Both the position numbers and the translations under genes were made by a program. This document shows positions 1-16,369 of a stretch of DNA of 16,369 bases, in pieces. The number at the start of each line of letters is the position of its first letter. Within the stretch, counting starts at the first letter, position 1. Source of the stretch: an uncultured bacterium. Its GTDB lineage: Bacteria > Abyssobacteria > SURF-5. Location of the stretch: positions 1-16,369 of the forward strand of contig CAZSKP010000040.1 in assembly GCA_964607485.1 (NCBI GenBank), written 5' to 3'. Under the pieces are notes generated by a model. The model searched no databases, was not told the DNA's origin, and worked only from the letters and a program-made list of their open reading frames with translations.

Positions 1-1
1 G

Positions 2-1099: not shown

Positions 1100-1168
1100 G
1101 AAGAGAAGTTGGCAGCGTTGTACTTTTGCTCTTTCATACATGATCGCTGATCGGGAAGGAGAGGAATC

Positions 1169-1966
1169 ATGACTGACCGTCTGAAGGGGAAAGTCGCAAT
1201 AGTCGTCGGCGCGGGTTCGACTCCCGGCGACACATTGAGCAATGGAAGGGCCACCTCAATGCTTTTTGCGCGCGAAGGCGCCTCGGTGATGCTGGTCGAT
1301 CGCCGGCGGGAATCGGCCGAAGAAACGAGAGAAATCATCGGCGCCGAGGGCGGCGATTCATTCGTATTCGAGGCCGATGTCACCCGTGCCGAGGATTGCA
1401 GGAAAATGGCGGAAAAATGCGTGGAAACATACGGCCGAATCGATGTCCTGCACAACAACGTCGGCATCGGCGAAGGCGGCGGGCCGGTTGAACTGAGCGA
1501 AGAGGATTGGGAGAAAGTGCTCGCTACCAACCTGAAAAGCATGTTTCTGACGTGCAAGCACGCGCTTCCACACATGGAAAAGCAGGGAAGCGGCGCCATC
1601 ATTAACATATCCTCGATGGCCGCCGTTCGCTTCGCGCCTTATCCCATGCTCGCCTACAGCGCATCCAAGGCCGGCGTGAACGCCCTCACCCGCTCAATCG
1701 CCATGCAGTACGCACACCACGGCATCCGCGCAAACGCCATCATGCCGGGCCTCATCAACACCCCGATGGCCATCGAGGGCATTTCCCAGCGCCTGGGTAT
1801 TGAAAAGAAAGACCTCATCCGAATGCGCGACGCGGCTGTTCCGATGAATCACATGGGCGAAGCGTGGGATGTCGCGTACGCGGCGCTCTTCCTTGCGTCG
1901 GACGAGGCAAAATACATCACCGGCGTCATCCTCCCTGTCGATGGCGGCCTCTCCTGCAAAGGGTAG
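1169..1966 (+). CDS. SDR family NAD(P)-dependent oxidoreductase
   Basis: Gly-rich VGAGS..NG Rossmann start, HNNVG, INISS, catalytic YSASK (YxxxK), C-terminal ITG..LPVDGG. RBS AGGAGAGG upstream. Confidence 0.95.
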   Translation: MTDRLKGKVAIVVGAGSTPGDTLSNGRATSMLFAREGASVMLVDRRRESAEETREIIGAEGGDSFVFEADVTRAEDCRKMAEKCVETYGRIDVLHNNVGIGEGGGPVELSEEDWEKVLATNLKSMFLTCKHALPHMEKQGSGAIINISSMAAVRFAPYPMLAYSASKAGVNALTRSIAMQYAHHGIRANAIMPGLINTPMAIEGISQRLGIEKKDLIRMRDAAVPMNHMGEAWDVAYAALFLASDEAKYITGVILPVDGGLSCKG

Positions 1967-2364
1967 CAGAATTTCCCCCACTGCTCCCTAAATGGGGTAT
2001 TGGGAGAGCAAATTTGGCCGCCGGACGCCTGCCGGACTGAACGTTAGCACCCTGCCATTGGACGAAACAGTCATACTGCAACAGGTTTCAAACCGCCGCC
2101 TCCCAGGTCATCTTTCGCCATCCGCACGAGAATCTCTTACCGTCCTTAAGTCTCTTCGGCCAAAGCACTTATTGGCATAAAGGGACGCTTCTTTCACCGT
2201 GCCAGACGCCCCTCGCTGCGTAATCCCCAGGACATTACAATTCGGATATTTTTTGTCATAATCGTTGCTAATTTTTTCCGGCCGGCCTGCGGGACGACAT
2301 GCGCGCATTTATTACAGATTGGAAATAAAGGAGATATGCAAGACGGAACGCTTGGTGAAACCGG

Positions 2365-2380
2365 TGGCATGATACTTGCC
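2365..2380 (+). promoter_or_regulatory. sigma54 (-24/-12) promoter
   Basis: TGGCATGATACTTGCC matches TGGCAC-N5-TTGC with exact GG-N10-GC spacing, in an intergenic region. Confidence 0.7.
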
Positions 2381-2390
2381 AAATACCGCG

Positions 2391-2480
2391 CCAAATAGGA
2401 AGTGCCATTAGCAGTGACTTTGGCGAGCCCGCTAATGGCACCCGGGAAAGCAAGGAATTCCCTTTTCCTTTCCCTTTTTT
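2391..2480 (+). ncRNA. candidate ~90-nt structured small RNA or attenuating leader
   Basis: Begins at the expected +1 of the sigma54 promoter. Perfect 11-bp stem GTGCCATTAGC (2402-2412)/GCTAATGGCAC (2431-2441), then a terminator-like hairpin with a T-run. Confidence 0.45.
2444..2480 (+). terminator. intrinsic terminator-like hairpin
   Basis: GGGAAAG (2444-2450) pairs with CTTTCCC (2468-2474), inner AAGG/CCTT pairing, followed by TTTTTT. Confidence 0.6.
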
Positions 2481-2629
2481 CATTATAGCCCCGGCTCGCT
2501 CGAAAGTCAAACGCGCATCAAGCGCGAATATCGGGAGGGGGGATGCGATAGCGACAAAATCTGCGACCTCTTTGCAGCAGAGCTCAGCATGAATCGACGA
2601 AGAATCAAGCAATCATTAGGAGGCGGACA

Positions 2630-2992
2630 ATGGGATTCAAACTCTTCGCGAAATCGCTCTTTTCACGCCCGGCACGTTGTCCTGCGGCCATGTTCACAAG
2701 GACAACCGCCGCGAGAGGATTCGTGACGCTGATGCTGGGGTTGGCTGCGGCAACAGTCTTGGCCGCTCCTTCCTCTGCGAGTATCGTGAACTCCGACTCG
2801 CGGCCAAACAGCTCCGGCGCAAGCGCGTCCTTGCAAGAGACCGAACTCTGTCAGTACTGCCATTCGTCTCGCAAGGCATCGAACCGGACCATCGGCGACG
2901 CGACGGAGGCATCTTGCCTGTTTTACGGTGAGAAGGTGATCGGCACGGTAAAGTGCTCGTCGTGTCACAAGCCCATCTGCCGGCAACCCTGA
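2630..2992 (+). CDS. small exported c-type cytochrome with two CxxCH motifs
   Basis: Strong RBS AGGAGG. Hydrophobic signal-like segment (FVTLMLGLAAATVLAAPSSA). Heme motifs CQYCH and CSSCH. Confidence 0.65.
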   Translation: MGFKLFAKSLFSRPARCPAAMFTRTTAARGFVTLMLGLAAATVLAAPSSASIVNSDSRPNSSGASASLQETELCQYCHSSRKASNRTIGDATEASCLFYGEKVIGTVKCSSCHKPICRQP

Positions 2993-3123
2993 CACTCTTT
3001 GCTGTCTGCAAAGTCGTCAAGAATGCCGGTCTCACGGTTCGGGTGCAATCCGGCTGTCGAGCGGTCGAGCATATTTACCGGGAAAGCCCGCTTCCAACCG
3101 AAAGATTCGGCAATATCGGCCGG

Positions 3124-3152
3124 TTGACAAAAGGGTTTACGTGAAATATAAT
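3124..3152 (+). promoter_or_regulatory. consensus sigma70 promoter upstream of iscU
   Basis: TTGACA (3124-3129), 17-nt spacer, TATAAT (3147-3152): a perfect consensus match. Confidence 0.85.
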
Positions 3153-3325
3153 GAGCGCGGTCGGACACCGTTTTCCCGGATGACTTGACCGACAATCGAG
3201 CAGTCGCTTGTTGGCCGATTCGCTCATCGATAGCCCGAGCGGCCGATTGGTTCCATACTGTAATGAGAAGGGCGAGTGGACGGAAGCCGCGCTCCCAGCG
3301 TCCCTTACGAACAAGAGGTGCATGA

Positions 3326-3712
3326 ATGTACAGCGAAAAAGTCATGGAGCATTTCTCCAATCCGCGCAACGTGGGCGAGATCCCCGATGCCGACGGCGTC
3401 GGCACGGTCGGGAATCCCGTTTGCGGCGACGTGATGAAGATTTTCATAACGGTCGAAGACGACCATCTCACGGACATAAAATTCAAGACGTTCGGATGCG
3501 GCGCCGCCATTGCCACCAGCAGCATGGTGACCGAGATGGCCAAGGGTAAGTCGCTCGATGAAGCGCTTGAAATCTCCAACAAGACGGTTGCCGAGGCGCT
3601 CGACGGGCTGCCCCCGCAGAAAATGCACTGCTCCAACCTCGCCGCAGACGCTCTGCATGCCGCAATAGATGACTATCGACAAAAGCACCCGGCGAAAGCC
3701 CCAACGGAATGA
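3326..3712 (+). CDS. iscU: Fe-S cluster assembly scaffold, IscU/NifU N-terminal type
   Basis: YSEKVMEHF.NPRNVG, GNPVCGD, FKTFGCGAAIA, LPPQKMHCSNLA: all three conserved Cys present. RBS GAGGTG. Confidence 0.95.
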   Translation: MYSEKVMEHFSNPRNVGEIPDADGVGTVGNPVCGDVMKIFITVEDDHLTDIKFKTFGCGAAIATSSMVTEMAKGKSLDEALEISNKTVAEALDGLPPQKMHCSNLAADALHAAIDDYRQKHPAKAPTE

Positions 3713-3857
3713 GGGTTTGCAGAGAAGCCATCGGAATGCGCAGACGGCCCGAGCGACCGAACAAGATGAGCCCTTTGTCCAGAATCCCCCGCAAAGCGAG
3801 TTGGAACGCGGAGCCGCGGCCGGGATCGGCTGCCGCGTTGTGAGGAACCCCGACTGA

Positions 3858-4712
3858 ATGTCGCTTTCAAGCGAGGTTGTCAAACTGTACCGCCGCATGG
3901 CGACCGACCTTTCGCCCGATATTTCCGACGGCCTCGCGAAGGCGCGCGCATCCGAAGAAAAAGACAGTCCCGCATACACGGCCATTTCCACCATAATCGA
4001 GAACGTCGAGCTTGCGCGGTCCGAGTCGAAGCCCATCTGTCAGGACACCGGGTATCCCGTGTTCTTCGTCACGATTTCCGAAGGCGCATCCATCCCAAAG
4101 GTCCGGGAAGCTATCGTCGAGGCCACCAAGGTCGCGACGGCCGAGATTCCGCTGAGGCCGAACGCGGTGGATTCTGTGACCGGCGCAAATTCTGGCGACA
4201 ACACCGGCACGCTCTGGCCGCTGATTTACTTCGAGGGCTGGCAGAACAACCACATACTCATTCGCGCAATGCTCAAAGGCGGCGGCAGTGAAAACTGCGG
4301 CGCAACCTACAAGCTTCCCGACCCCCGCCTCGGCGCCGCTCGCGACCTCGAAGGAGTGAGAAAAGTCGTGCTCGACGCGGTGCACGCTGCGCAGGGCCGC
4401 GCCTGCCCGCCATACGTGCTCGGCGTCGCGCTCGGCGGAAGCAAAGATGCCGTGGCACGGCTCTCGAAGGAGCAATTGTTCAGGCAGCTCGACGACTCCA
4501 GCCCTTCAACGGAACTCGCTGCGCTGGAGCGGAAGCTCCTCGACGAGGCCAATAGCCTCGGCATCGGTCCGATTGGCGTCGGCGGCAGGACATGCGTCAT
4601 GGGTGTCAAGATCGGAGCCGCCCACCGGCACGCGGCGACCTACTTCGTCGATATAGCGTTCTGCTGCTGGGCCGACCGCAAGGGCACACTCGAATATCAC
4701 GGGAAACCATAG
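3858..4712 (+). CDS. class I Fe-S hydro-lyase (fumarate/tartrate hydratase) alpha subunit
   Basis: PICQDTG, KGGGSEN, GRACPP, GIGPIGVGG and C-terminal CCWADR motifs. Confidence 0.93.
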   Translation: MSLSSEVVKLYRRMATDLSPDISDGLAKARASEEKDSPAYTAISTIIENVELARSESKPICQDTGYPVFFVTISEGASIPKVREAIVEATKVATAEIPLRPNAVDSVTGANSGDNTGTLWPLIYFEGWQNNHILIRAMLKGGGSENCGATYKLPDPRLGAARDLEGVRKVVLDAVHAAQGRACPPYVLGVALGGSKDAVARLSKEQLFRQLDDSSPSTELAALERKLLDEANSLGIGPIGVGGRTCVMGVKIGAAHRHAATYFVDIAFCCWADRKGTLEYHGKP

Positions 4713-4714
4713 CG

Positions 4715-5305
4715 ATGGCCGACTATCAGCTCAAAACCCCGCTCGCCGAAGCCGACGTGCGCGCATTGAAGGTTGGCGACACGGTCAGGCTGAGCGGTTC
4801 GATATTCACCGCTCGCGACCGGGCCCACAAGTACCTGATCGAAGAGGCGACACCCGAGACGCTCGAATTCGACCTCAGAGGCGGAGCGCTCTATCACTGC
4901 GGCCCGCTGGTTCGGAGGAAGAACGGGGGTTTCGAGCTCGTCGTGGCCGGCCCGACGACCAGCAATCGCATGAACCCGTATGAGGCCGACGTGATAGCCC
5001 GGTACGGCATTCGTGCGATAATAGGAAAAGGGGGGATGGACGACCGCACGCTCGAGGCGCTGGGGCGGCACGGCTGCGTGTACCTCTCGGCGGTGAGCGG
5101 AGCCGCGGTCGTTCTCGCGCGCTACGTGACGAGAATACTGAACGTGCACAAACTCGAGGAGTTCGGGATGCCCGAGTGCTTCTGGGAGTTCGAGGTGAAA
5201 GGGTTCCCGGCAATCGTTACCATGGACACACGCGGCGAAAGCATCCACAGGCTGGTCGAAACAGCTTCGGCTGAGAGGCTGAAAGGATTGTTGCGTACAA
5301 AGTGA
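4715..5305 (+). CDS. class I Fe-S hydro-lyase (fumarate/tartrate hydratase) beta subunit
   Basis: ATG at 4715, just after the alpha-subunit stop; the ORF-track start at 4592 overlaps alpha. TARDRAH, YHCGP, GPTTSNRM, IGKGGM and GMPE motifs. Confidence 0.93.
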   Translation: MADYQLKTPLAEADVRALKVGDTVRLSGSIFTARDRAHKYLIEEATPETLEFDLRGGALYHCGPLVRRKNGGFELVVAGPTTSNRMNPYEADVIARYGIRAIIGKGGMDDRTLEALGRHGCVYLSAVSGAAVVLARYVTRILNVHKLEEFGMPECFWEFEVKGFPAIVTMDTRGESIHRLVETASAERLKGLLRTK

Positions 5306-5365
5306 GCGGCGCTCCAAAGAACGCACGGGGAAAAACAGCGGGGTTAACTGTGAGGTGAGGAGACT

Positions 5366-5833
5366 ATGATCAAGATCGAGAAGATTCTGTTTCCGACCGA
5401 CTTTTCCGACCATAGTAAGAACGCTTTCCGCTACGCGGTCTCGTTTGCGAAGGAATACGGGGCGAAGCTTTACGTGCTCCACGTGATAGAAGACATACAG
5501 TACCTCGCAAACGCCTACATGTTCGACGTCCCCATAATGCCGTCGTTCGCAGATATGGAGCAAAACCGCCTGAAGGAGATGCAGGAGTTCATCGACCGAG
5601 AGGTCACCGACCCGGAGATAAAGATTGAAAAAGTGATACGGCGCGGACGGCCATTCATTGAGATAATTCAGATGGCGCGCGAGGAAAACATCGACCTGAT
5701 AGTGACCGCCACACACGGCCGGGGCGGGCTGGAACATGTGCTCTTCGGCAGCGTCGCCGAAAAAGTCGTGCGCAAGGCCCCCTGCCCCGTGCTCAGCATA
5801 CGGACGCCGGGCCAGGAGTTCTCCATGCCGTGA
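5366..5833 (+). CDS. universal stress protein (Usp family)
   Basis: KILFPTDFS, LYVLHV, ATHGRGG..FGSVAEKVVRKAPCPVL. RBS GAGGAG. Confidence 0.95.
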   Translation: MIKIEKILFPTDFSDHSKNAFRYAVSFAKEYGAKLYVLHVIEDIQYLANAYMFDVPIMPSFADMEQNRLKEMQEFIDREVTDPEIKIEKVIRRGRPFIEIIQMAREENIDLIVTATHGRGGLEHVLFGSVAEKVVRKAPCPVLSIRTPGQEFSMP

Positions 5834-5837
5834 AAAC

Positions 5838-5866
5838 TTGTCCGACACGCGATAATTTGGCATAAT
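5838..5866 (+). promoter_or_regulatory. candidate sigma70 promoter for the nfu gene
   Basis: TTGTCC, 17-nt spacer, CATAAT, with an extended -10 TG. Confidence 0.45.
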
Positions 5867-5905
5867 AGATTGGAAGAATTCGCAACTACGGAAGGAGGTT
5901 CAGGA

Positions 5906-6127
5906 GTGAAAGAAAAAGTTCAGGAAGCCCTTAACGGCATCAGACCCCAATTGCAGGCCGACGGTGGAGACATCGAGCTCATAGAGGTAACCGATGACGG
6001 TGTGGTGAAAGTGCGCCTCGTGGGCGCATGTTCAGGCTGTCCCGGCGCCCAGATGACCTTACAGCTCGGAGTCGAACGCGTGCTCAAGGCGCATGTGCCC
6101 GAGATCAAAGCGGTCGAAGCGGTCTGA
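5906..6127 (+). CDS. Nfu/NifU C-terminal domain Fe-S carrier
   Basis: IRPQLQADGGDIEL, GACSGCP (CxxC), MTLQLGVE. GTG start at 5906 chosen from RBS AAGGAGG and domain length. Confidence 0.93.
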   Translation: MKEKVQEALNGIRPQLQADGGDIELIEVTDDGVVKVRLVGACSGCPGAQMTLQLGVERVLKAHVPEIKAVEAV

Positions 6128-6149
6128 AGGACTCAACAGAAAGACACCT

Positions 6150-6188
6150 CGGAGAGAAGCGCGCCTGCGCCGGGTGCGCCTCTTTCCG
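6150..6188 (+). terminator. GC-rich hairpin after nfu, possible terminator
   Basis: CGGAGAGAA-GCGCGCCTG-cgc-CGGGTGCGC-CTCTTTCCG imperfect stem-loop; the U-tract is weak. Confidence 0.4.
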
Positions 6189-6379
6189 TAAATTGCATTT
6201 GTGCGCAAAGAGATTTTCGGTTCCTGTCTATTACCCCGAACTCATTAGATCAAGCGTGCGACAGCGGAGAGATAAGCCTTGCACAAATTTCTTGGCAAAC
6301 AGATCTCTCAGCGAGATATCCATACGCGCGCTTCAGTGAGGAATCATAACCGCGTGGAGTCCATCAAAGGAGCCATCGC

Positions 6380-7669
6380 ATGAAGAAGATCCTCTACATC
6401 GTCCTTGACGGTCTGGGTGACAGGGCCACGCCGGCCCTGGGGAACCGCACCCCGCTCGAAGCCGCGCACACGCCCGAAATGGACAAGCTCGCGCGCCGGG
6501 GTGAAAACGGAGTCATGTACACCGTCGCGCCCGGCATCGCGCCCGAATCCGACATAGCGGTCATATCCATCCTCGGCTACGACGCGTACAAGTACTACAC
6601 GGGCAGGGGTCCGCTCGAATCGCACGCGGTCGGGCTGAAAGTCAACACGGGCGACCTGGCGTACCGGGTAAACTTCGCCACGATGGGCGAGGGCCGCAAT
6701 ATCGCCGACCGACGCGTCGGCAGAAACCTGACCACCCCCGAGGCCGACGAGCTGTCCCGCGAAATAAATGCAAAGGTGAAGCTCACCTCGGTCCCCGGAG
6801 CAAGCTTTGAATTCAAGAACACCATCGAGCACAGAGGCGTGCTCGTCATCCGATGCGGCGGAAAGCTCTCCGCCGAGGTCTCCAACACCGACCCGGCATA
6901 CGGCCGAGAGGGCCTGCTCGGCGTGGCGCTCGAGAAATTCGAAGACGTCGTGCAGACGTGCGAGCCGCTCGACGGCGCCACCAACCTCAAAGCAGCGCAG
7001 ATGTCGGCCAAGTTGACAAACGAGTTCGTCGAAAAGAGCCATGAGACGCTGGAGGCATCCGAGGTCAACAAGAAGCGGCGGTCGCAGGGCAAGCTGCCCG
7101 GCAACCTGATACTCACCCGCGACGGCGGCGACCGGCTTCCGCAGATGCCGCCCATCAGCAAGCGGTTCGGCGTGCAGTTCGGCTGTTTCCAGGAGATGCC
7201 GGTGGAAAAGGGGATCGCCATGCTCACCGGCATGGACATCGTGCCGGTGCCCCAGGCGTCGGGCAACCCTGAGAGGGATTATCCCTACCTGGCCAAGCTG
7301 GCGGTGCAGGAGCTGCCCAAATACGGAGGCCTGTACATCCACATAAAAGGCCCCGACATCCCCGGCCACGACGGCAGGGCCGAGCAGAAAAGGGACATCA
7401 TCGAGGCCATCGACAAATTTTTCCTGGCCAATTTGGTTCCCGGCCTGGATTTCAGCGGCATTGTCCTCACATTGACCGCCGACCATTCGACGCCGTGCAT
7501 AATGAAGTCGCACTCGGCCGACCCCGTGCCGATCCTGATATTGGATTCTTCACTCAAGCCGGACGGCACGAAAGCGTTCACCGAGGCCGAATGCGCCAAG
7601 GGCAAGCTGGGACAGATAACCGGAGTGCAGTTGCTGCCGAAGCTGGTCGAGCTGGCCGGCGGCGGCTGA
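6380..7669 (+). CDS. apgM: 2,3-bisphosphoglycerate-independent phosphoglycerate mutase, archaeal type
   Basis: DGLGD, TPLEAA.TP.MD, PESD (catalytic Ser), YYTGRGPLE, KGPD.PGHDG, TADHSTP and HSADPVP metalloenzyme motifs. Confidence 0.9.
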   Translation: MKKILYIVLDGLGDRATPALGNRTPLEAAHTPEMDKLARRGENGVMYTVAPGIAPESDIAVISILGYDAYKYYTGRGPLESHAVGLKVNTGDLAYRVNFATMGEGRNIADRRVGRNLTTPEADELSREINAKVKLTSVPGASFEFKNTIEHRGVLVIRCGGKLSAEVSNTDPAYGREGLLGVALEKFEDVVQTCEPLDGATNLKAAQMSAKLTNEFVEKSHETLEASEVNKKRRSQGKLPGNLILTRDGGDRLPQMPPISKRFGVQFGCFQEMPVEKGIAMLTGMDIVPVPQASGNPERDYPYLAKLAVQELPKYGGLYIHIKGPDIPGHDGRAEQKRDIIEAIDKFFLANLVPGLDFSGIVLTLTADHSTPCIMKSHSADPVPILILDSSLKPDGTKAFTEAECAKGKLGQITGVQLLPKLVELAGGG

Positions 7670-7681
7670 AAGGAGCAAACG

Positions 7682-7888
7682 TTGCCAGACGAATCCTCTT
7701 CCGAACACTACACCACGAGCGAGTGGACGCGCGAGGAATGGGAGCGTGCGTGGAACCTCAAGGTGGGCACCGCGTATAGCTGCGCCAAGTGCGGCAACAT
7801 GATAATGATAACCAAGGGCGGCGTCGGTACGCTCGAGCCCACATGCTGCGACGAGCCGATGAAACCCACCCGGAGAGAGCAAACGTGA
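7682..7888 (+). CDS. stand-alone desulforedoxin-like (Cys4 metal site) protein with an acidic N-terminal extension
   Basis: RBS AAGGAG and TTG start. YSCAKCGN...TCCDEPM = CxxC-x17-CC-x2-PM. Confidence 0.8.
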   Translation: MPDESSSEHYTTSEWTREEWERAWNLKVGTAYSCAKCGNMIMITKGGVGTLEPTCCDEPMKPTRREQT

Positions 7889-7916
7889 CGGTTCAGCACC
7901 GCACAGGAGGTTCCCA

Positions 7917-8162
7917 TTGAAGCTCGGCCACACGTTTCGCTGCTCGGTGTGCGGCTCCGAAACGGTCGTCATCCGCGCGGGAAAAGGGGCGTTACGGCCC
8001 GTATGCTGCAACCAGCCTATGGTCCTGCTCAAGAAGAGGACCGAGATGTATCGCTGCCCCGTGTGCGGCTCCGAGGTTGCCGTGATAAGCTGGAAAACAG
8101 GCAACCTGCGGCTCGTATGCTGCAATGTTCCGATGCGAGCTCTCGTAGCAAAATCCGCTTAA
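7917..8162 (+). CDS. tandem double desulforedoxin-like domain protein
   Basis: RBS AGGAGG and TTG start. FRCSVCGSE...VCCNQPM and YRCPVCGSE...VCCNVPM. Confidence 0.82.
   Translation: MKLGHTFRCSVCGSETVVIRAGKGALRPVCCNQPMVLLKKRTEMYRCPVCGSEVAVISWKTGNLRLVCCNVPMRALVAKSA
7937..8135 (+). repeat. intragenic 114-bp-period imperfect tandem duplication
   Basis: TCGCTGCnnnGTGTGCGGCTCCGA at 7937 and 8051; CGTATGCTGCAA at 8000 and 8114. Confidence 0.85.
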
Positions 8163-8168
8163 GAGCCC

Positions 8169-8197
8169 TTGATTTTCGCGGTATTCGTGATTATACT
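8169..8197 (+). promoter_or_regulatory. candidate sigma70 promoter for hsp20-lon
   Basis: TTGATT, 17-nt spacer, TATACT. Confidence 0.6.
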
Positions 8198-8263
8198 TTA
8201 CCGTAAGGCTGTGAACAGTCTCCCTCCGCCCTCTGCTGCCGGATTTTTGAAAGGAAGTTGACG

Positions 8264-8707
8264 ATGGATGATCCTGCCAACCTGTTCGGTGACATAAAGC
8301 GCGCGCAAGAAGAGATGGAACACCTCATGCGGCAGGTGTTTGGACAGACGTTCCCGCTGATGCGCCCATTGGAGGGCAAGTGGCGGCCGAATGTGGATGT
8401 CTTCGAATGCGAGGACAGCATAATTGCGATCGCAGAACTCGCGGGCGTCTCGCGCGAGGACGTCTCCGTAACCTTCGACGACGGGAAGCTGCGCATAAGC
8501 GGAGTCCGAAGAGATGAGGCTCCCTATACATGCAGAAAATATTGCCAGCTCGAGATAAACTACAACGAGTTCGAACGCACAGTGTACCTGCCCGAGAATA
8601 TCGACGCCGACAAGATTACCGCCAAGCTCAGCAACGGCTTCATGATCATCGAGGCGCCCAAAATAAAACCCCAGAACCCGAAGAGTCAGCAAATACAGAT
8701 AGGGTGA
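8264..8707 (+). CDS. Hsp20/alpha-crystallin small heat shock protein
   Basis: WRPNVDVFE, AELAGV, LRISGVR, FERTVYLP, AKLSNGFM.I.APK. ATG at 8264 is better spaced from AAGGA than TTG at 8258. Confidence 0.93.
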   Translation: MDDPANLFGDIKRAQEEMEHLMRQVFGQTFPLMRPLEGKWRPNVDVFECEDSIIAIAELAGVSREDVSVTFDDGKLRISGVRRDEAPYTCRKYCQLEINYNEFERTVYLPENIDADKITAKLSNGFMIIEAPKIKPQNPKSQQIQIG

Positions 8708-8711
8708 TAAG

Positions 8712-11141
8712 ATGACGCCGACCTCAAACGACAGCTCTGCAAACGCCGTCACGACGGCGGAAGAGCCGAAGACGGACGAAACTCAGCGGATACCCGAAGT
8801 GCTGGGAATTCTGCCTCTGAAAAACACGGTAATGTTCCCCTTCACCGTCATACCGCTGTCCGTCGGCGAGAAAAGCTCGATCGCACTCATCGACGAGGCC
8901 GTTTCGGGCTCAAAAATCATCGGCTGCGCGGCCATGAAGGACGCAGCAGGCGAAAGAAAGCCCGAAAATGTTTACGAGTACGGGGCCGCCGTGACCATCC
9001 TCAGGATGATGAAGCTGCCCGACGGGTCCGCCGCCGTGCTCGTCCAGGGCATGTCGAAAATAAAGATCGAGCAGTACGTCTCCCTCGACCCGTTCTTGAG
9101 AGCGCGCGTTCAGACCATCGAGGAGAGCGACGAGCTCTCCACGCGGGGCGAGGCGCTGTTTCGCAACGTGCTCGCGCAGTGTCAGAAGATAATCTCGCTT
9201 ACTCCCTACCTGCCCGACGAGCTCCAGGCGACGCTCATCAACGTCGAATCGGGCATCCGGCTGGTGTACCTCGTGTGCTCCGTGCTCAAGCTCACCATCG
9301 AGGAAAAACAGCAAATCCTCGAGCTGACGACCGTGGAGGCCAAGCTCGAAAGGGTCAGCCATATGCTCAATCGCGAGATAGAGCTGCTCGAGCTCGGGGG
9401 CAAAATCAAGTCGCAGGTCGAAAGCGAAATGACGAAGACGCAGAGGGAATATTTCCTCCGCGAACAGCTGAAGGCGATACAGCAGGAACTCGGCGAGGGC
9501 GACGAACGTCAGGCCGAGATAAAGGAAATTCGGGAGAAACTGGACGCGAAGAAGCTGCCCGAGGAGGCGAAAAAGGAGGCCGAGCGCGAACTTGACAGGC
9601 TGGCCAAGCTCCCCCCTGCGGCGGCCGAATACCACGTCATCCGGACCTACCTCGACTGGATCATCGACCTGCCATGGAATGAATTCACGGAGGACAAGCT
9701 CGACCTCAAGCACGCGCAGGAAGTGCTCGACGCCGACCACTACGACCTCAAGGAAGTGAAGGAGCGAATCGTCGAGTACCTGGCCGTTCGAAATCGAAAG
9801 CCCGACATGAAGGGCCCGATCCTGTGCTTCGTCGGACCGCCCGGCACGGGGAAAACGTCGCTCGGCCAGTCGATCGCGCGCGCGCTCGGAAGAAAGTTCG
9901 TCCGCATGAGCCTCGGCGGCGTCCGCGACGAGGCCGAAATCCGCGGCCACCGCCGCACCTACATCGGCGCGCTCCCCGGCCGAATAATACAGAGCATCCG
10001 ACGCGCCGGCTCGGCCAACCCGGTTTTTATGATGGACGAAGTGGACAAAGTCGGCGCCGACTTCCGGGGCGACCCTTCCTCCGCCCTGCTCGAGGTGCTC
10101 GACCCGGAACAGAACAATTCGTTCCGCGATCATTACCTCGACTTGCCGTTCGACCTCTCGCAGGTCATGTTCATCACGACGGCCAACGTACTGCAAACCA
10201 TCCATCCGGCGCTTCAGGACAGGATGGAGATTCTCGGTCTGGCGGGCTACACCGAGGAGGAGAAGCTCTGGATCGCAAAGAAATATCTGCTCCCGCGCCA
10301 GTTGGAGGAGAACGGCCTCCAGGCGGAACACCTCGAATTCGACGACGCGGCCATCCGCAAGATATGCAATTCCTACACGCGCGAGGCGGGCGTGCGCAAC
10401 CTCGAGCGGACCATCGGAAAGGTGTGCAGGAAGGTGGCGCTCGAGATATCGACCGATAAGAGGAAAGAGGAAAAGATCACCGAGGACAACCTGCACCATT
10501 ACCTCGGTCCCGAAAAGTTCTTCCGCGAGGCCGCATTGAGGACATCCCATCCCGGCGTCGCCACCGGGCTTGCCTGGACCGAGACCGGCGGCGAGGTGCT
10601 CTTCATCGAGGCGCTCTCCATGCCGGGCGGGAAAACCCTCACGCTCACCGGTCATCTGGGCGATGTGATGCAGGAATCGGCCAAGGCCGCGCTCAGCTAC
10701 GTGCGCGCCAAGGCGAAGGACCTCGGGATACCGGAAAACTTCTTCGCGAGGCAGGACATCCACGTTCACGTGCCCGCGGGCGCAATACCCAAAGACGGTC
10801 CCTCGGCCGGCATCACAATGGCCGTGGCCATCGCCTCGCTCCTGACGGGCAGACCCGTCAACAAGGACGTCGCGATGACTGGCGAAATCACGCTCAGCGG
10901 GCTTGTGCTCCCCATCGGCGGAGTAAAGGAAAAGATCCTGGCGGCCAAGCGAGCCGGCATCAAGACGGTGATACTCCCCAAGAAAAACGAGAAGGACCTG
11001 TCGGAGATCGAGGACGAGCCTAAGTCGGGCCTCGAATTCGTCTTCGTCGAGAACATCGACGACGTCCTGAAAGTCGCCCTCACCGACGCGCGAGATGAGA
11101 CGACCCCGAAAAAGCGCGCACCAGCGGGAAAGGCAACGTAG
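8712..11141 (+). CDS. lon: ATP-dependent protease Lon (endopeptidase La)
   Basis: Lon N-domain ([10 protein letters not shown]), Walker [22 protein letters not shown], Walker B MMDEVDK, catalytic PKDGPSAG and GGVKEK. Confidence 0.98.
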
Positions 11142-11153
11142 GCTCGAAGCATT

Positions 11154-12380
11154 GTGGACAGAAAACGAGTTGAGGCGAGGCTTAACTTGGCCCGCCATTT
11201 CTTCCAGCATACGTTTCGCCGCCTGTTCGCACAGGAGGCGGCCGACGGGGTCGGCCTGAGCCAGTTCTTCTCGAATTACCGCGCGGACAACATATTCCAG
11301 ATCGAGGAGCACGAGCGGCAACGCTTTTCCACCTATTCGCGCTGTATCCAGTGCAGCATCTGCCAGCCCTATTGCGTCATGTTCAGGGCCGTCGGCTATC
11401 TGGAATTCCCCGGGCCGATGGCCGTCGCGAGCACCCTCTCGCGCGCCCTGTCCGAATTGGGCTCCGCCAGCGGCGTGATATACAACTGCACCCAGTGCCG
11501 CCTCTGCGAGACCGCCTGTCCCGAAAACGCACCCATCGCCGAAATGGTCGGCTTCATACGGAGGTACCTCTACGAGTATTCTCCCGAGTTGGTTCCGAAG
11601 CCGCTCAAAGAGCTCTGCGGCGTCGTGCGGCGGCAGGGAAGCATATTCGAAAAGCCGCCCCCCGACAACATTTACGAAAAGAGATCGGCGGAATATGTGC
11701 TTTTCCTCGGGTGTCAGAGTCGTTTCAAGCAGCCGCAAAGGGTCGAGGCGGCCGTATCGATGCTCAAACGAATTGCGGTCGATTTCACGACGATAGACGA
11801 ACTCTGCTGCGGCGCCCCCCTGAGCGCGGCTGGCTGCGACACCGCGGCCGACCTCGCGCGCGAGAACGTCGAACGCATCCGGGAAAAGAACACGGCGAAA
11901 GTCATCACGCTCTGCCCCCACTGCCTCGTCGAGTTCTGCGAGGGAAGGGAATATGCCGGCATGATCGAGCCGATACACATCGCCGAGCTGCTCCCCCAAC
12001 TGCACCCCGCGGCCACGGGCAGGGAGCCGATCACCTATCACGACCCCTGCATGCTGGGAAGGGCCTGCGGCATTTATGACGAACCCCGCAAGGCGCTCAA
12101 GCGGGCCGGCGCCAATCTGGTGGAAATGAGCTCCTCGAGAGAGATGGCGTTCTGCTGCGGCAACTGGGGAGGTCTCGGCCAGAGCGCGAGAGAGGTGGCC
12201 GAAGCGATAGCCGCGCGGCGTCTCGAGGACGCCCAGGCCGCCGGAGCCGAAGTGCTGCTGACCGAATGCCCCTGGTGCCTCGAAATTTTTCAATCAACGG
12301 CTCTGCCCCACGCCAAACCTCAAGGGGGCAAGCCTCGCGTACGGTCGGTCGTCGAGTATCTGCAAAATCCCGAGGCGTAA
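11154..12380 (+). CDS. (Fe-S)-binding protein with two 4Fe-4S motifs and two CCG domains (GlcF/HdrD-like)
   Basis: [50 protein letters not shown]. Confidence 0.9.
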
Positions 12381-12508
12381 TTCACCCGCCCGGCTCTCAC
12401 ACGCTCTATGGCGCAAAAGGGAGTCCGATGTCAACTTTAAAGGAGGACTCACGATAGTTTTGGCCGAAAGGGCGCCGATGTCCCATTGAAACCGATGGGG
12501 GCGATTGA

Positions 12509-13516
12509 ATGTCTTATCTCAGACATGTAATAATCGGAAGCGGCCCGGCGGGCGTCGAGGCGGCTCGTTCCGTCCGCAATCTGAGCGAACGAGACGAAAT
12601 TGCGCTCGTTACCGACGAGCCCCATCTGTCCTATTCGCGGCCTCTTCTTCCCGACTATGTGGCCGGAAGAGTGTCGCTCGACAGGCTCTGGCTGCATCCC
12701 GAGTCGTATTACAGCGACATCCGCATCGAGGTGCGGCTTGAGACACGGATCGTTTCGGTGAATCCCGACCATAATGTCGTCGTGACCGAGGCCGGCGAGG
12801 AGATGCCTTTTGACAGGCTGCTGATTGCATGCGGAGGACAGCCGAAGCTCCCGTCCATTGAGGGGCTCGCCGATGCCCATGCCGTGACGCTCAAGACGCT
12901 GGCCGACGCGCAGAACATCATCGCCCGCGCCAAGAGAGGCTCAAGCGTGCTCGTTGTGGCGCGCGACCTGGTGGGTGTCGAGATGACGCGCGCGTTTTGT
13001 CAGATGGGCATGAGAGTCACCTACATCGAATGGGGCGACGAACTTCTGCCCCATTTGCTCGACCCGGCCACCGCCGAGGAGCTGGTCCATAAGATGAAAG
13101 CGGCGGGAGTGCACGTCATCGTCGGCGAGAAGATACAGAGGGTCGAAGGCTCTCAGGGGAATGTTTCCGTTCACACGCTGGGGGGAACGCTCACAGGAGA
13201 CATCCTCGCTGTCGCCGTCGGATTGACCCCCGCCCTCGAATGGCTGAAATCGAGCGAAATACGGACCGATGCGGGCGTGGTCGCCGACGAGCGGCTGAGG
13301 ACGAATTACCCGAACATCTTCGCCGCGGGCGACGTCGCGCAGGTGTACGACCCGGGAATCGAGCGGCGACGGCTCCTCTTCGGCTGGAAGAACGCCGTCG
13401 AGCAAGGAAGAATCGCGGGCGCGAACATGTGCGGAGACAGCATCGAGTTCGCAGTCACTCACGCGCCCGGACTCAAACAAATCTTCGGCGTCGATGTGCG
13501 GCACAGGTGGAAATAA
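12509..13516 (+). CDS. FAD-dependent pyridine nucleotide-disulfide oxidoreductase-like protein (rubredoxin reductase/NADH oxidase fold), atypical
   Basis: IIGSGPAG, YSRPLL, FDRLLIACG, RT.YPNIFAAGDVA, W.NAVEQG.IAG.NM. Confidence 0.88.
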   Translation: MSYLRHVIIGSGPAGVEAARSVRNLSERDEIALVTDEPHLSYSRPLLPDYVAGRVSLDRLWLHPESYYSDIRIEVRLETRIVSVNPDHNVVVTEAGEEMPFDRLLIACGGQPKLPSIEGLADAHAVTLKTLADAQNIIARAKRGSSVLVVARDLVGVEMTRAFCQMGMRVTYIEWGDELLPHLLDPATAEELVHKMKAAGVHVIVGEKIQRVEGSQGNVSVHTLGGTLTGDILAVAVGLTPALEWLKSSEIRTDAGVVADERLRTNYPNIFAAGDVAQVYDPGIERRRLLFGWKNAVEQGRIAGANMCGDSIEFAVTHAPGLKQIFGVDVRHRWK

Positions 13517-13534
13517 AGGAAGCGGCGTCGGCCC

Positions 13535-13759
13535 ATGAAGATCTCGCATCAATACCCTCTCGTGGACAGGGAGCTGTGCATCGGGTGCGGCAACTGTCAT
13601 GGCTGCTGCCCCGCCGAGCCGAACGTGTTCGAGATACGCTTCGCTGAAGAATGGGACGAGGAGAAGTCGTTCGTCGTGGAGCCAAACGCGTGCATCGAGT
13701 GCGGGCTGTGTGTCGGTGAGTGCCCCGTGCAGGCCATCAGCCTGATTGGCCCCGACTGA
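13535..13759 (+). CDS. 2[4Fe-4S] ferredoxin
   Basis: CIGCGNCHGCCP and CIECGLCVGECPVQAI. Confidence 0.92.
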   Translation: MKISHQYPLVDRELCIGCGNCHGCCPAEPNVFEIRFAEEWDEEKSFVVEPNACIECGLCVGECPVQAISLIGPD

Positions 13760-13781
13760 AGAGAAAAGGGAGAAGGAAACC

Positions 13782-13949
13782 ATGCCCACAAAACGCAACC
13801 TGATGGTGAAAGTCGTCGACGCCCGCCCGGGCGAAGTCATGAAACTCCTCAAGAATGCAGGCATACAAGTCGTCAGCGTGGTCGAGGTCTATAAGGAAGA
13901 CATCCCGGAACAGGAAGCGGCCAAACCCGCCGACGCCGAGAAGGGTTGA
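13782..13949 (+). CDS. small hypothetical protein (55 aa)
   Basis: RBS GGGAGAAGGA, ATG at 13782, short gap after the ferredoxin, host-like codon usage. Confidence 0.65.
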   Translation: MPTKRNLMVKVVDARPGEVMKLLKNAGIQVVSVVEVYKEDIPEQEAAKPADAEKG

Positions 13950-14041
13950 CCCGCGGCGAAATCCTCACTCCTGAAGATGGCGGCGGCAATACGCATTTGA
14001 CGTCCATCGCGGGCAAATGCTCGGTCACTACCCGTGCGAAC

Positions 14042-14071
14042 TTGACTTTTCACTTTTTAGCACGGTAAGAT
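14042..14071 (+). promoter_or_regulatory. candidate sigma70 promoter
   Basis: TTGACT, 18-nt spacer, TAAGAT, in an AT-rich patch. Confidence 0.5.
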
Positions 14072-14207
14072 TTTATTCAGTTGACCACAGGCGATTTCCG
14101 GCGCGACACGAGACCATGACGCGACGAGTCGTCGAGGCGGGGTATTTCGACGTCCGCTGCGGTCCCCGTGGGAGGTCACGCTCAAGGCCTTCCCGAGGGG
14201 GAAACGA

Positions 14208-14516
14208 ATGAAAAAGCTTGTCTTCCACACCCTGGTTGCCGCCATGGCTCTCGGGCTGCTGTTGGCGCTCATCTTCTTTGGCGTGAGCGCGGCCCACCGG
14301 CCGTCGCACTCAGGGCCCAGCCACAGCGCTCTCCCCTCTCCACCCCTCCACAGCGCTATCGGCGACAGCGACATCTCCACATTGAATGCGCTCCCGGAAG
14401 GAAATGCTCACGCGGATGTCGTAGGGGCCGCAGACGGGCCGACACTCCCCCACGCGGCAGCGCCGCACGAAACCGAAACCGTAAAGTTCGTCGAGGGAAC
14501 AACGTCTGCAGAATAG
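14208..14516 (+). CDS. small exported or membrane-anchored hypothetical protein
   Basis: MKK followed by a ~22-aa hydrophobic segment and a His/Ser/Pro/Ala-rich tail. RBS GAGGGGG. Confidence 0.6.
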   Translation: MKKLVFHTLVAAMALGLLLALIFFGVSAAHRPSHSGPSHSALPSPPLHSAIGDSDISTLNALPEGNAHADVVGAADGPTLPHAAAPHETETVKFVEGTTSAE

Positions 14517-14524
14517 CTCTTGCC

Positions 14525-14908
14525 TCAGGCGCCGGCGGCGATGCGCTTCCTGAGGGCGCGAATGAGGTCGCGCACATCCAGCGGCCTGGCGAAGTAGTCG
14601 TGATTCTCGCCCTCGGAGTCCTGGATGTCGGTCGTGAACAGGATGGGAATATCGGACAGGCGGCGGTCGGCCTGCATGCGGGCGGCGATCTCGAAGCCGG
14701 ACAGCCCCGGCATTATGACTTCGACCACAACGGCGTCGGGAAGCTCTTCTCGGATTCGACCGAGGGCGCCCCGCGGCGAAGAGCACGACACGACACGAAA
14801 CCCCTCCTCCTGAAGCGGCCCCACAATCTCCTCGATGTGAGCCGGGTTAACGTCGATCACGAGCACCTTCGGAAGGGACGTCTTATGTGCGGAATCGCCT
14901 GTCGGCAT
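14525..14908 (-). CDS. single-domain response regulator receiver, atypical (pseudo-receiver)
   Basis: KVLVID, PDAVVVEVIMPGLSGFE, DIPILFTT, DYFARP. ATG at 14908 preceded by GAGGGT; TTG at 14926 is an alternative start. Confidence 0.85.
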   Translation of the reverse strand: MPTGDSAHKTSLPKVLVIDVNPAHIEEIVGPLQEEGFRVVSCSSPRGALGRIREELPDAVVVEVIMPGLSGFEIAARMQADRRLSDIPILFTTDIQDSEGENHDYFARPLDVRDLIRALRKRIAAGA

Positions 14909-14954
14909 CTGCGTTATCACCCTCAAATCGGAGTCACGTCGGCTCTTACATAGT

Positions 14955-15566
14955 TTAAAGCCGTATCTCTATTTTGGCAATCCTGTATATTTTCAGGTCG
15001 CTTCTTCGCTCGAGCAGAACCGGCCTGTAAGCGGGGTTCAAGGGCTCGAGCATCAATTGGTCGCCCTTTCTCGCGTAGCGCTTCACCATTATTCCCTCGT
15101 CCGACTTCGCCAGCACGATGTCGCCCGATTCGTACTGCATGTTGGGCGTGACGAGCAGATAGTCGCCCTCCTGGATTCTCCCCCCCACCATACTGTCACC
15201 TTCGGCGATAACGTAGAACGCGTTGGGGTCCTTCGAATCCGTCAGCTCATAATCCGCGCCGAACCCCGGGGGAAACTCGAGATCGCCGACGTCCAACCAT
15301 TCGCCGCACGACACCTTGTTGATGACGGGAATATACCTGTATCTCGAAGGAATCGGCTGAGGGGCGGAGCTCGATACAATCTCTGTCAGCGATACATTGA
15401 GAGCTCTGGCCAGTCGGGTAAGAACCTCAAGCGATGGATTTTTCTTTCCGCTCTCGATCTCGATAACGTATGACTGGGATATGTCGGCCTTCAGCGCGAG
15501 GTCGGCGCTCGTCATCTTGGGCCGCTTCGATTTTCTCAATGCTCTAATTCTACCACCGACTTGCAA
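14955..15566 (-). CDS. XRE-family HTH plus peptidase S24 (CI/LexA-like) repressor
   Basis: N-terminal HTH (LALKADISQSYVIEIESGKKNPS), IPVINKVSCG cleavage-site region, catalytic GDSM Ser and VKRY Lys. RBS GGGAGAAGG. Confidence 0.93.
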   Translation of the reverse strand: MQVGGRIRALRKSKRPKMTSADLALKADISQSYVIEIESGKKNPSLEVLTRLARALNVSLTEIVSSSAPQPIPSRYRYIPVINKVSCGEWLDVGDLEFPPGFGADYELTDSKDPNAFYVIAEGDSMVGGRIQEGDYLLVTPNMQYESGDIVLAKSDEGIMVKRYARKGDQLMLEPLNPAYRPVLLERRSDLKIYRIAKIEIRL

Positions 15567-15589
15567 CGCAACCTTCTCCCTTCATTTCG

Positions 15590-15618
15590 ATTGTACACGA
15601 GGCTGGCCCGTTTGTCAA
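15590..15618 (-). promoter_or_regulatory. sigma70 promoter for the repressor gene (leftward)
   Basis: On the - strand: TTGACA (15618-15613), 17-nt spacer, TACAAT (15595-15590). Confidence 0.8.
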
Positions 15619-15656
15619 CACAATTCGGCAATGTTTCTTTCGGTAGAAAAAAGCGC

Positions 15657-15685
15657 TTGACAGAATAATCGCTATATGTTATAAT
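15657..15685 (+). promoter_or_regulatory. consensus sigma70 promoter (rightward)
   Basis: TTGACA (15657-15662), 17-nt spacer, TATAAT (15680-15685), with an extended -10 TG. Confidence 0.88.
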
Positions 15686-15702
15686 AATCACCATTAGCGA
15701 TA
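15667..15702. promoter_or_regulatory. two 17-bp operator-like imperfect palindromes
   Basis: AATCGCTATATGTTATA (15667-15683) and AATCACCATTAGCGATA (15686-15702). Implied symmetric consensus ATCGCTA-N-TAGCGAT. They overlap the -10 and +1 of the rightward promoter. Confidence 0.6.
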
Positions 15703-15728
15703 TTATGTTGCGGGCCAATGGAGAGTTT

Positions 15729-15947
15729 ATGAGCGCGGATGTCGAGCAACACACCCTGGAGGAGCTCAAACGCCAGGTGCGGGCCTGGGAAGCCCATATC
15801 GATGAGCTCGGGCTAATCGAGCGGAAAGAGTTTGTCCTCTGGCTTTCCCAAGTCATTGTTCCACAGGAGTTTGCTCTTCTCGTCGACTCGGAGGTGGAAA
15901 GGGGGGCGCTGTGGAAGATCTACCTGCGCGAACGTTATGGGCCTTGA
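15729..15947 (+). CDS. small hypothetical protein (72 aa), first gene of the divergent operon
   Basis: ATG at 15729 after GGAGAG, directly downstream of the rightward promoter. No recognisable motif. Confidence 0.6.
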   Translation: MSADVEQHTLEELKRQVRAWEAHIDELGLIERKEFVLWLSQVIVPQEFALLVDSEVERGALWKIYLRERYGP

Positions 15948-16023
15948 GCGCGGCGGAGCGAGGAGGGCCGTTTCAGAGGAGGACGACCGCCAGGGAGACC
16001 CGGACAGACCGGAGGAGAGCGTG

Positions 16024-16369
16024 ATGGCCAATTATTTCAACGCGAGAGAGACCCTCCCGCCCGAGCTGATAGCGGAGGTAATGCGGCACATTCCAGAGGC
16101 GAGCCGAAGCGGCGCGATGATATATTTCAGCGAGGATTACTATGCGAGCCGGAATGCGGAGATCGGACGGAGCTTTGAAATACTCCAATCCGACCCTTCC
16201 TTCGGCAGCCACCTGGAGATTTACGAAGCTCTTTCGGAGCAATACGGGTTGACACCCCGGCGGATATGTGAGATCGTGAAAGGGGTACGGGGTCAGTGCG
16301 AGAGGCGCGGCCCGTCGAGGCGAAGGTACTCCGGCGTGCGCGTCGGACGGTCCTCGCGCAGGATGAGGG
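16024..16369 (+). CDS. Mor/CD3324-like HTH DNA-binding protein, 3'-truncated by the window edge
   Basis: Absent from the ORF track because it has no stop in the window. RBS GGAGGAG. Hand translation MANYFNARETLPPELIAEVMRHIP..GAMIYF..RNAEI...EALSEQYGLTPRRICEIVK fits the family pattern as I recall it. Confidence 0.7.
   Translation, partial: MANYFNARETLPPELIAEVMRHIPEASRSGAMIYFSEDYYASRNAEIGRSFEILQSDPSFGSHLEIYEALSEQYGLTPRRICEIVKGVRGQCERRGPSRRRYSGVRVGRSSRRMR

Follow-up and report, generated by a model that had tools for sequence, protein, structure and literature searches.

Results

A divergent repressor-activator module at the right-hand end of the window

The window analysed here, a stretch of 16,369 nucleotides from an uncultured bacterium of the Abyssobacteria, comprises positions 1–16369 of the 40,454-bp contig C40 in its 4.7-Mb source genome (G000). 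At its right-hand end two short operons face away from one another (Table 1). The leftward operon carries a CI-type repressor gene followed by a gene for a receiver-like protein; the rightward operon encodes a protein of 72 residues, orf72, and a basic helix-turn-helix (HTH) protein, MorL, which resembles the Mor and C activators of phage Mu. An earlier note on positions 14955–16369, made from the sequence letters, had described here an S24 repressor with intact Ser and Lys residues, near-perfect divergent promoters, operator-like sites over the rightward promoter, an orphan first rightward gene that is not Cro-like, and a repressor stop close to the receiver gene with no integrase, tRNA or transposase between them. 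These observations on the sequence proved correct in every item, and the evidence for each is given below.

Table 1. Genes and regulatory sites of the module, in window coordinates
Feature	Position	Strand	Properties
Pseudo-receiver gene	14525..14926	-	133 aa; Pfam Response_reg 44.9 bits
CI-type repressor, XRE helix-turn-helix and Peptidase_S24	14955..15566	-	203 aa; TTG start; GGAG-type ribosome-binding site
Leftward promoter of the repressor/receiver operon	15590..15618	-	TTGACA-17-TACAAT, 11/12
Rightward promoter	15657..15685	+	TTGACA-17-TATAAT with TG extension, 12/12
Operator O2 (ATCGCTATATGTTAT)	15668..15682	.	on the spacer and -10 of the rightward promoter
Operator O1 (ATCACCATTAGCGAT)	15687..15701	.	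between the -10 and the transcript start region
orf72, first gene of the rightward operon	15729..15947	+	72 aa, acidic, all-helical, no known family
MorL, Mor/C-like basic HTH protein	16024..16369	+	115 codons in the window, open reading frame cut by a 10-N gap

The repressor retains the residues for self-cleavage

In Pfam, the repressor scores 70.6 bits against Peptidase_S24 (PF00717; cut-off 23.3) and 55.4 bits against HTH_3, and its residues 2–193 match the PHROG family phrog_4, ‘transcriptional repressor’, at 1.1e-33. UmuD, LexA and lambda CI are its nearest solved relatives, whilst its matches among the PADLOC models are generic HTH ones only. When the protein was aligned with nine orthologues, Cys87-Gly88, Ser125 and Lys162 were found to be invariant (10/10). 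From what is known of the LexA/CI/UmuD family and its CG, GDSM and VKR motifs, we take Cys87-Gly88 to be the cleavage site and Ser125 and Lys162 to form the catalytic dyad. Since this S24 machinery is intact and conserved, a DNA-damage-triggered two-step cascade, as the earlier note had proposed, is its natural reading.

The repressor is not a canonical LexA. The LexA_DNA_bind domain (PF01726) is absent, the N-terminus being an HTH_3 domain of the XRE type, and the score against the lexA model TIGR00498 is 58.2 bits compared with a cut-off of 110.95. Two canonical LexA genes are present elsewhere in G000, which rules out the S24 repressor as the organism's own LexA and marks it as an accessory S24 unit. 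A fourth open reading frame (ORF) with an S24 domain, besides these three, lies at C27:23671–23946 on the minus strand.

Paired operators overlie the rightward promoter

The 1.7-kb region that was scanned contains three promoter-like sites, compared with 0.6 ± 0.6 in shuffled sequences. An inverted repeat of 7 nt (ATCGCTA/TAGCGAT) flanks the −10 element of the rightward promoter on both sides. The rightward promoter regions of 10 genomes align without gaps, and in all 10 both operator-like dyads are kept at the same offset: O1 departs from ATCGCT-N3-AGCGAT by 0–3 mismatches and forms a perfect dyad in two genomes, O2 departs from it by 2–4, and the centres of the two sites are 19 bp apart. The leftward promoter also has its −35 and −10 conserved in relatives, at a distance from the rightward promoter that ranges from ~40 to ~600 bp.

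The pair of operators occurs at two places in the whole of G000, the module and one other at chance level (0–1 places in each of five shuffles), from which the repressor appears to have a single target, the rightward promoter of its own module. A wider regulon for the repressor was considered and rejected on this result. A scan for single sites with at most one mismatch gave eight in G000, about the number expected by chance from calculation; such a scan is too strict to be informative, as the module's own operators carry two and three mismatches.

The receiver-like gene and orf72

The repressor stop is separated from the receiver-like gene by 28 nt, too short a distance for an integrase, tRNA or transposase to lie between the two, and the genes are probably co-transcribed from the leftward promoter. 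In the receiver orthologues Glu69 replaces the phospho-accepting Asp and Arg114-Pro115 replaces Lys-Pro, without exception among the nine aligned; the placement of Glu69 and Arg114 presumes the general receiver consensus. Lacking both the phospho-accepting Asp and the conserved Lys of a receiver domain, the product of 14525–14926 is, to judge from these residues, a conserved pseudo-receiver. The gene adjoins the repressor in eight of nine relatives' loci, the locus of G010 giving no receiver match.

Orthologues of orf72 are present at five of nine relatives' loci (missing in G003, G007, G009 and G010) and fall into six database clusters with 17 invariant columns. The protein has a pI of 4.9, and its AF2 model (pLDDT 83.7) has four helices. 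No match was found in Pfam, NCBIfam, PHROG or PADLOC; structural comparison gave no fold match (best Z 4.1, with nothing HTH-like), and the matches by language-model (ESM) features were uninformative.

MorL as a probable distant relative of the Mor/C activators

MorL orthologues are mostly of 121 residues, with 42–72% identity and 15 invariant columns. The protein is basic, with a pI of 9.7 for one 121-residue orthologue (P0001). We searched with the members of a family alignment of 32 sequences (A1), for which Pfam Mor (PF08765) and NCBIfam CD3324 (NF040785) were the top families in their respective databases: each was hit by 29 of the 32 members at E ≤ 1, the best values being 2.1e-4 for Mor and 1.5e-5 for CD3324, with none over the cut-off. 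The A1 profile matches a six-repeat Mor protein at 4.4e-9 (a protein just under the Mor cut-off, 8.7e-4). Alignment of profiles by hhalign gave 44% (E 2.3e-4) for MorL against the Mu C family, over 42 columns that span the helix with R-N-x-E-I...F and the HTH, and 17% (E 0.0014) against Mu C alone. The ESM features of P0001 lie nearest to Mor clusters (0.88, with 181–185 shared features). An AF2 model of MorL (pLDDT 74) was compared by VIA with Mu C (9l0x_G), giving Z 6.6 and an rmsd of 2.1 over 48 residues at 25% identity, and with Mor (1rr7_A), giving Z 5.7 and an rmsd of 2.3 over 46 residues. A search of PDB sequences with the A1 profile returned nothing meaningful, and neither orf72 nor MorL matched a PADLOC defence model at E ≤ 0.001.

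We read MorL as distantly related to the Mor/C activators and specific to this lineage; by curated thresholds it is not a member of their families, and there is a fair likelihood that it would work as they do. The C-terminus of MorL is a conserved Arg-rich tail, RRRYSGVRVGRSSRRMxVRT (window 16300–16369; A1 columns 101–130), which recalls arginine-rich nucleic-acid-binding peptides.

The rightward operon ends just past the window

The right edge of the window is a scaffold gap, represented by the run of 10 N that cuts the MorL ORF. The nine nucleotides before the gap (16361–16369) recur directly after it, in the stretch C40:16370–16388, and the frame after the gap reads MRVRTAAR-stop, overlapping the ...RRMR that precedes the gap by way of this 9-nt repeat. 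Given this overlap, and orthologues of 121 residues with a tail of ...RRMxVRT..., the two sides of the gap most likely abut, which would have the MorL ORF end a few codons past the window. About 80 nt further on there is a hairpin with a 14-bp stem (−38.6 kcal/mol; z −3.7 for the plus and −5.1 for the minus strand), situated between the MorL ORF and the stop of a convergent gene for an 848-residue secretin, pilQ. The rightward operon consists of two genes, orf72 and morL, and stops at a hairpin that it shares with pilQ.

The remaining 24 kb of the contig carries pilQ, a pilP-like gene, pilN and pilM on the opposite strand and a terS-like gene with terL; its further genes encode a DJ-1/PfpI protein, a ferredoxin, TPR proteins, a methyltransferase, an LPG-synthase-like protein and a glycosyltransferase. 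There is no integrase, tail or capsid gene in these 24 kb. On its left, the module is flanked by the receiver and redox genes. The earlier note had placed a tailocin, a gene transfer agent (GTA) or another phage-derived cluster to the right of the window. In this form the prediction was not supported, as none is contiguous in the rest of the contig and the operon ends at the hairpin; what the annotation of the downstream DNA did yield is a lone terS–terL pair 6.4 kb to the right. Phage-like genes directly to the right of the window are ruled out by the ORF end, the hairpin and the convergent pilQPONM genes. Nor is the locus an integrated prophage or an integrative and conjugative element, with no integrase in the right 24 kb and the same position held in several genera (att repeats were not searched for).

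The module is fixed across the phylum

MorL was found in 11 of the 61 genomes searched, G000 included. It occurs in eight of nine further genomes from the family of G000, which represent as many, or nearly as many, genera, and in the single genome of a second family (G010, the deepest branch of the phylum); outside the phylum one genome of 50 gave a match, which was weak, at 25% identity, and had an internal stop. The repressor/MorL pair is present in 10 of the 11 phylum genomes examined, the only one without MorL being G008, which is 95% complete and in 570 contigs. Nine of the 10 genomes that bear the pair have the pseudo-receiver behind the repressor, and receiver, repressor and MorL are syntenic in eight of nine relatives.

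To the right of MorL, convergent pilQPONM genes stand beside the module in G000 and in four of nine relatives (G003, G004, G007 and G009), thus in five genera. The contig stops right past MorL in three relatives (G001, G002 and G005), and other genes follow MorL in G006 and G010. In G006 a TIR-NB-ARC-TPR gene of the STAND type (L019:10655–12862) takes the place of pilQ.

No relative of MorL was detected in 2.9 million viral contigs, and a search of 1.84 billion representative proteins gave no more than 10 clusters at E ≤ 1e-3. The comparison of related genomes that the note had called for therefore bears out its description of a phage-type repressor/activator module free of any integrase: the module is a fixed part of the host chromosome and is kept throughout the phylum, with its order kept in nearly all relatives and pilQ adjacent in fewer.

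A scattered set of HK97-type head and packaging genes

G000 also carries genes of an HK97-type head, distributed over several contigs. The portal gene stands alone on C52, and an operon on C11 comprises prohead protease, capsid, a gp6-like connector and large tail-like ORFs. The terS–terL operon (C40:22765–24562) is the one noted above and lies between pilM and the DJ-1/PfpI gene, with the terS-like ORF directly upstream of terL. The terL product matches Terminase_6C at 3e-11 and the NCBIfam model termin_lrg_T7 at 2.4e-33, the latter below its 150-bit cut-off; against psiM2_ORF9 it scores 43.3 bits, over the cut-off of 41.65 bits. Among the other genomes of the phylum, the portal is found in 8/10, the protease in 10/10 and terL in 9/10.

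In the main family the head genes are split, and differently so by genus. In G010 they are nearly contiguous, running from terS and terL through two carotenoid-type genes to portal, protease, capsid, connector and more. The two genes between terL and portal in that genome (L122:8396–10938) are phytoene-synthase-like and amine-oxidase/desaturase-like, as judged from their translations alone. In G003 (C77; L045:56645–57124 in contig coordinates) a terS-like gene lies directly upstream of portal, and matches to terL are spread over several short contigs.

In two genera a member of the head set lies less than 7 kb from the module: in G000 it is terS–terL, and in G004 it is the portal, ~4 kb away on the left side. 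The expected number of such proximities is ~0.09 (P ~0.004), by a rough Poisson estimate that assumes random placement and ignores contig breaks.

An identical box of 22 nt is found upstream of the portal gene and of the protease operon in G000, with a variant upstream of terS. The box sits just upstream of a weak −35, which it includes, and an extended −10 follows. In relatives it is seen at the same places (6/10 loci for portal, 8/11 for protease and 6/12 for terL). The sites in G000 are C11:53692, C52:11184, C40:22635, C8:43768 and contig ends of C4, C17, C30, C62 and C78, and five relatives hold 4–19 copies each, compared with 0–1 for a reversed control; G004 has its own variant of the box at all six of its sites. 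One copy lies ~680 nt upstream of a thiamine pyrophosphate (TPP) riboswitch, which was the only result of an Rfam search of the terS region and 12 box loci, and a tRNA search found no tRNA. Similarity between the flanks places the box within a longer, dispersed repeat. The core of the repeat reads TTAACAA-N4-TTCSTTG plus the −35, and its copies (L085–L114 in relatives) are often at contig ends, followed by hairpin-rich leaders without clear ORFs. On sequence grounds the box looks like a lineage-specific UP-element/−35 cassette. We considered it as a binding site for MorL and dropped the idea, since the box is not specific to the operons of the head set.

A separate small island in G000 (C24:33000–47000; L067) contains a tyrosine integrase, an excisionase-like gene, a tape-measure-like gene and a second HK97-type capsid gene, and may be a degenerate prophage or satellite.

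Discussion

On balance, we regard the module as a phage-derived, chromosomally fixed two-step transcriptional switch, a domesticated one that is probably of the SOS type and responsive to DNA damage. Following the LexA/CI paradigm, dimers of the repressor would hold the rightward promoter shut; on DNA damage, RecA bound to single-stranded DNA would trigger cleavage at Cys87-Gly88 by Ser125 and Lys162, the rightward promoter would fire, and orf72 and MorL would be made. If MorL behaves as Mor and C do, it would then activate promoters elsewhere on the chromosome in trans. Nothing adjacent is under the control of the module.

The best candidate for a target is the scattered head and packaging set, that is terS–terL, the lone portal and the operon of protease, capsid, connector and tail-like genes, an assignment we make only tentatively. 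A link between switch and head set is suggested by their shared distribution and by their proximity in two genera. Taken to its full extent, the switch would be the master control of these dispersed operons, acting via MorL and perhaps with orf72, in the manner of a GTA and outside the Alphaproteobacteria; we put this forward as a possibility about which we remain doubtful.

Several observations weigh against these readings. At the level of the switch, the repressor's own promoter carries no operator, unlike in classical CI or LexA autoregulation, so that the repressor gene seems not to be autoregulated in the classical manner. MorL falls below the curated cut-offs, with 13.6 bits compared with 24.9 for Pfam Mor and 15.7 compared with 65 for CD3324; hhalign against Mu Mor itself gives 1%; the Z values of 6.6 and 5.7 are found among many generic HTH matches; and Foldseek with the MorL model returned nothing at E ≤ 0.001. 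The description of the gene as Mor/CD3324-like in the earlier note thus goes back to matches that fall short of the curated cut-offs. The join across the scaffold gap is also affected, as no contig of two public runs (Logan) bridges the gap and contigs stop at both gap edges exactly. That independent runs break at the same two positions suggests a graph branch or strain variation. As to the head set, the distribution that it shares with the module says little, both being phylum-wide. The 22-nt box is not specific to the kit, given that of its nine sites in G000 of at least 20 bits five lie where a contig ends and one is found ahead of an oxidoreductase region, and the head genes of G010 show no such box.

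Three other explanations have to be considered. The module could be a self-contained accessory SOS unit of the kind represented by FddR of Francisella, in which a co-opted phage S24 repressor controls only its divergent neighbours and MorL regulates host damage-response functions, such as repair, division arrest and stress genes, in place of phage-derived ones. The restriction of the paired operators to the module's rightward promoter fits this scheme, as do the position of the module among host genes throughout the phylum and the failure to find a MorL site at the head genes. We nevertheless think it unlikely, given that G000 already has two canonical LexA genes, that MorL is closest, on every measure used, to phage late-gene activators, and that members of the head set lie near the module in two genera.

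It is very improbable that the module is an inert remnant of an ancient prophage immunity region, kept only for immunity against related phages and with rightward genes that have no present function. The CI type of the repressor, the loss of orf72 from four of nine relatives and the lack of detectable MorL relatives outside the lineage are what such a remnant would leave, but MorL is intact in 10 of 11 genomes from two families, with its identity, its invariant columns and its Arg-rich tail, and the promoter and both operators are conserved base for base. Decay would not preserve all these features across genera. Finally, regulation by MorL of the type IV pilus genes next to it (pilMNOPQ), perhaps to promote the uptake of DNA once damage has occurred, draws on the adjacency of pilQPONM in G000 and some relatives and is scarcely credible, as the pil operon is convergent with its promoter ~6 kb off, G006 and G010 have lost the adjacency and retained the module, and no shared motif was found.

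We thus return to the phage-derived two-step switch, which has a bearing beyond this locus. Cascades in which a repressor gives way to an activator over domesticated phage parts have been described in Bacillus and in a small number of Proteobacteria, all of them in culture. The same logic is here built from different parts in an uncultured phylum of sediment and subsurface, with a repressor that, by its conserved residues, should still be cleavable and a Mor-like family met in no other lineage; from genus to genus the module occupies a single chromosomal position, in genomes that also retain the scattered phage-head kit. Our literature searches found no publication on this module in this lineage. 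If switch and head set are connected, an unstudied phylum would offer a candidate GTA-like system open to testing, with a defined inducer (DNA damage), operator and activator, and its parts could be assayed without growing the organism, either in vitro or in E. coli. Should the two prove unconnected, the module still illustrates how a phage immunity region has been turned into an accessory SOS unit.

Among known systems, PrtR/PrtN of Pseudomonas aeruginosa pairs a CI-type repressor capable of autocleavage with a divergent activator gene, and derepression of the pyocins, a fixed phage-derived system, depends on RecA. The module has the same layout, with a repressor predicted to be autocleavable. 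It differs in its activator, as no member of the A1 alignment matches a PrtN family in Pfam at E ≤ 1, and in its surroundings: pyocin genes adjoin prtN and prtR, whereas the module's operon ends at a terminator followed by host genes. In phage Mu, the cascade runs from c and Ner through Mor and C to the late genes (NC_000929), and the activator is made only once the repressor is lifted. The Mu repressor is not known to be an S24 protein. Mor and C are small dimeric HTH activators with a helix and an HTH near the C-terminus and a basic end, a plan that MorL appears to follow, and they provide the best match to MorL by sequence, profile and features; MorL differs from them by an 11-residue insert before the HTH and by its own conserved Arg-rich tail, and there is no transposase or phage genome at the module. 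PBSX of Bacillus subtilis is a defective phage-like particle, host-fixed and DNA-damage-inducible, in which the Xre repressor controls the positive factor Xpf and this in turn the late operon. Xre is not known to have an S24 domain, Xpf is sigma-like and the genes form one contiguous cluster; the likeness to the module lies in the order of a repressor and then a presumed positive factor.

Two further systems are close to the module in their regulatory design. In Francisella, FddR is described as a co-opted phage S24 repressor, present lineage-wide, that acts on a palindrome at a divergent promoter pair (PMC13148647), and it illustrates that a repressor of this origin can come to regulate a divergent unit throughout a bacterial lineage, a trait in which the module resembles it. 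Set against FddR, the module is distinguished by two canonical LexA genes in the genome, by operators over the rightward promoter only and by an activator as cargo. In Caulobacter crescentus, the LexA-like protein RogA directly represses gafYZ, whose products activate the GTA cluster together with auxiliary loci elsewhere on the chromosome (PMC9632790). The resemblance is that of a repressor of HTH plus S24 type, fixed in the host, over small activator genes. RogA is without the S24 catalytic residues, while the Ser/Lys and Cys-Gly residues of the module are invariant; moreover, the module's activator is Mor/C-like, its phylum is a different one and its target is a candidate only, whereas GafYZ switch on a domesticated phage-head system (PMC9632790). 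Should the switch described here indeed control the head set, it would be a third, independently evolved instance of a LexA-like repressor, a small activator and a domesticated capsid in series, one with a repressor that is still catalytically competent and with controlled genes that are broken up over the chromosome. The module is thus a variation, with different parts, on the logic of PrtR/PrtN and RogA/GafYZ.

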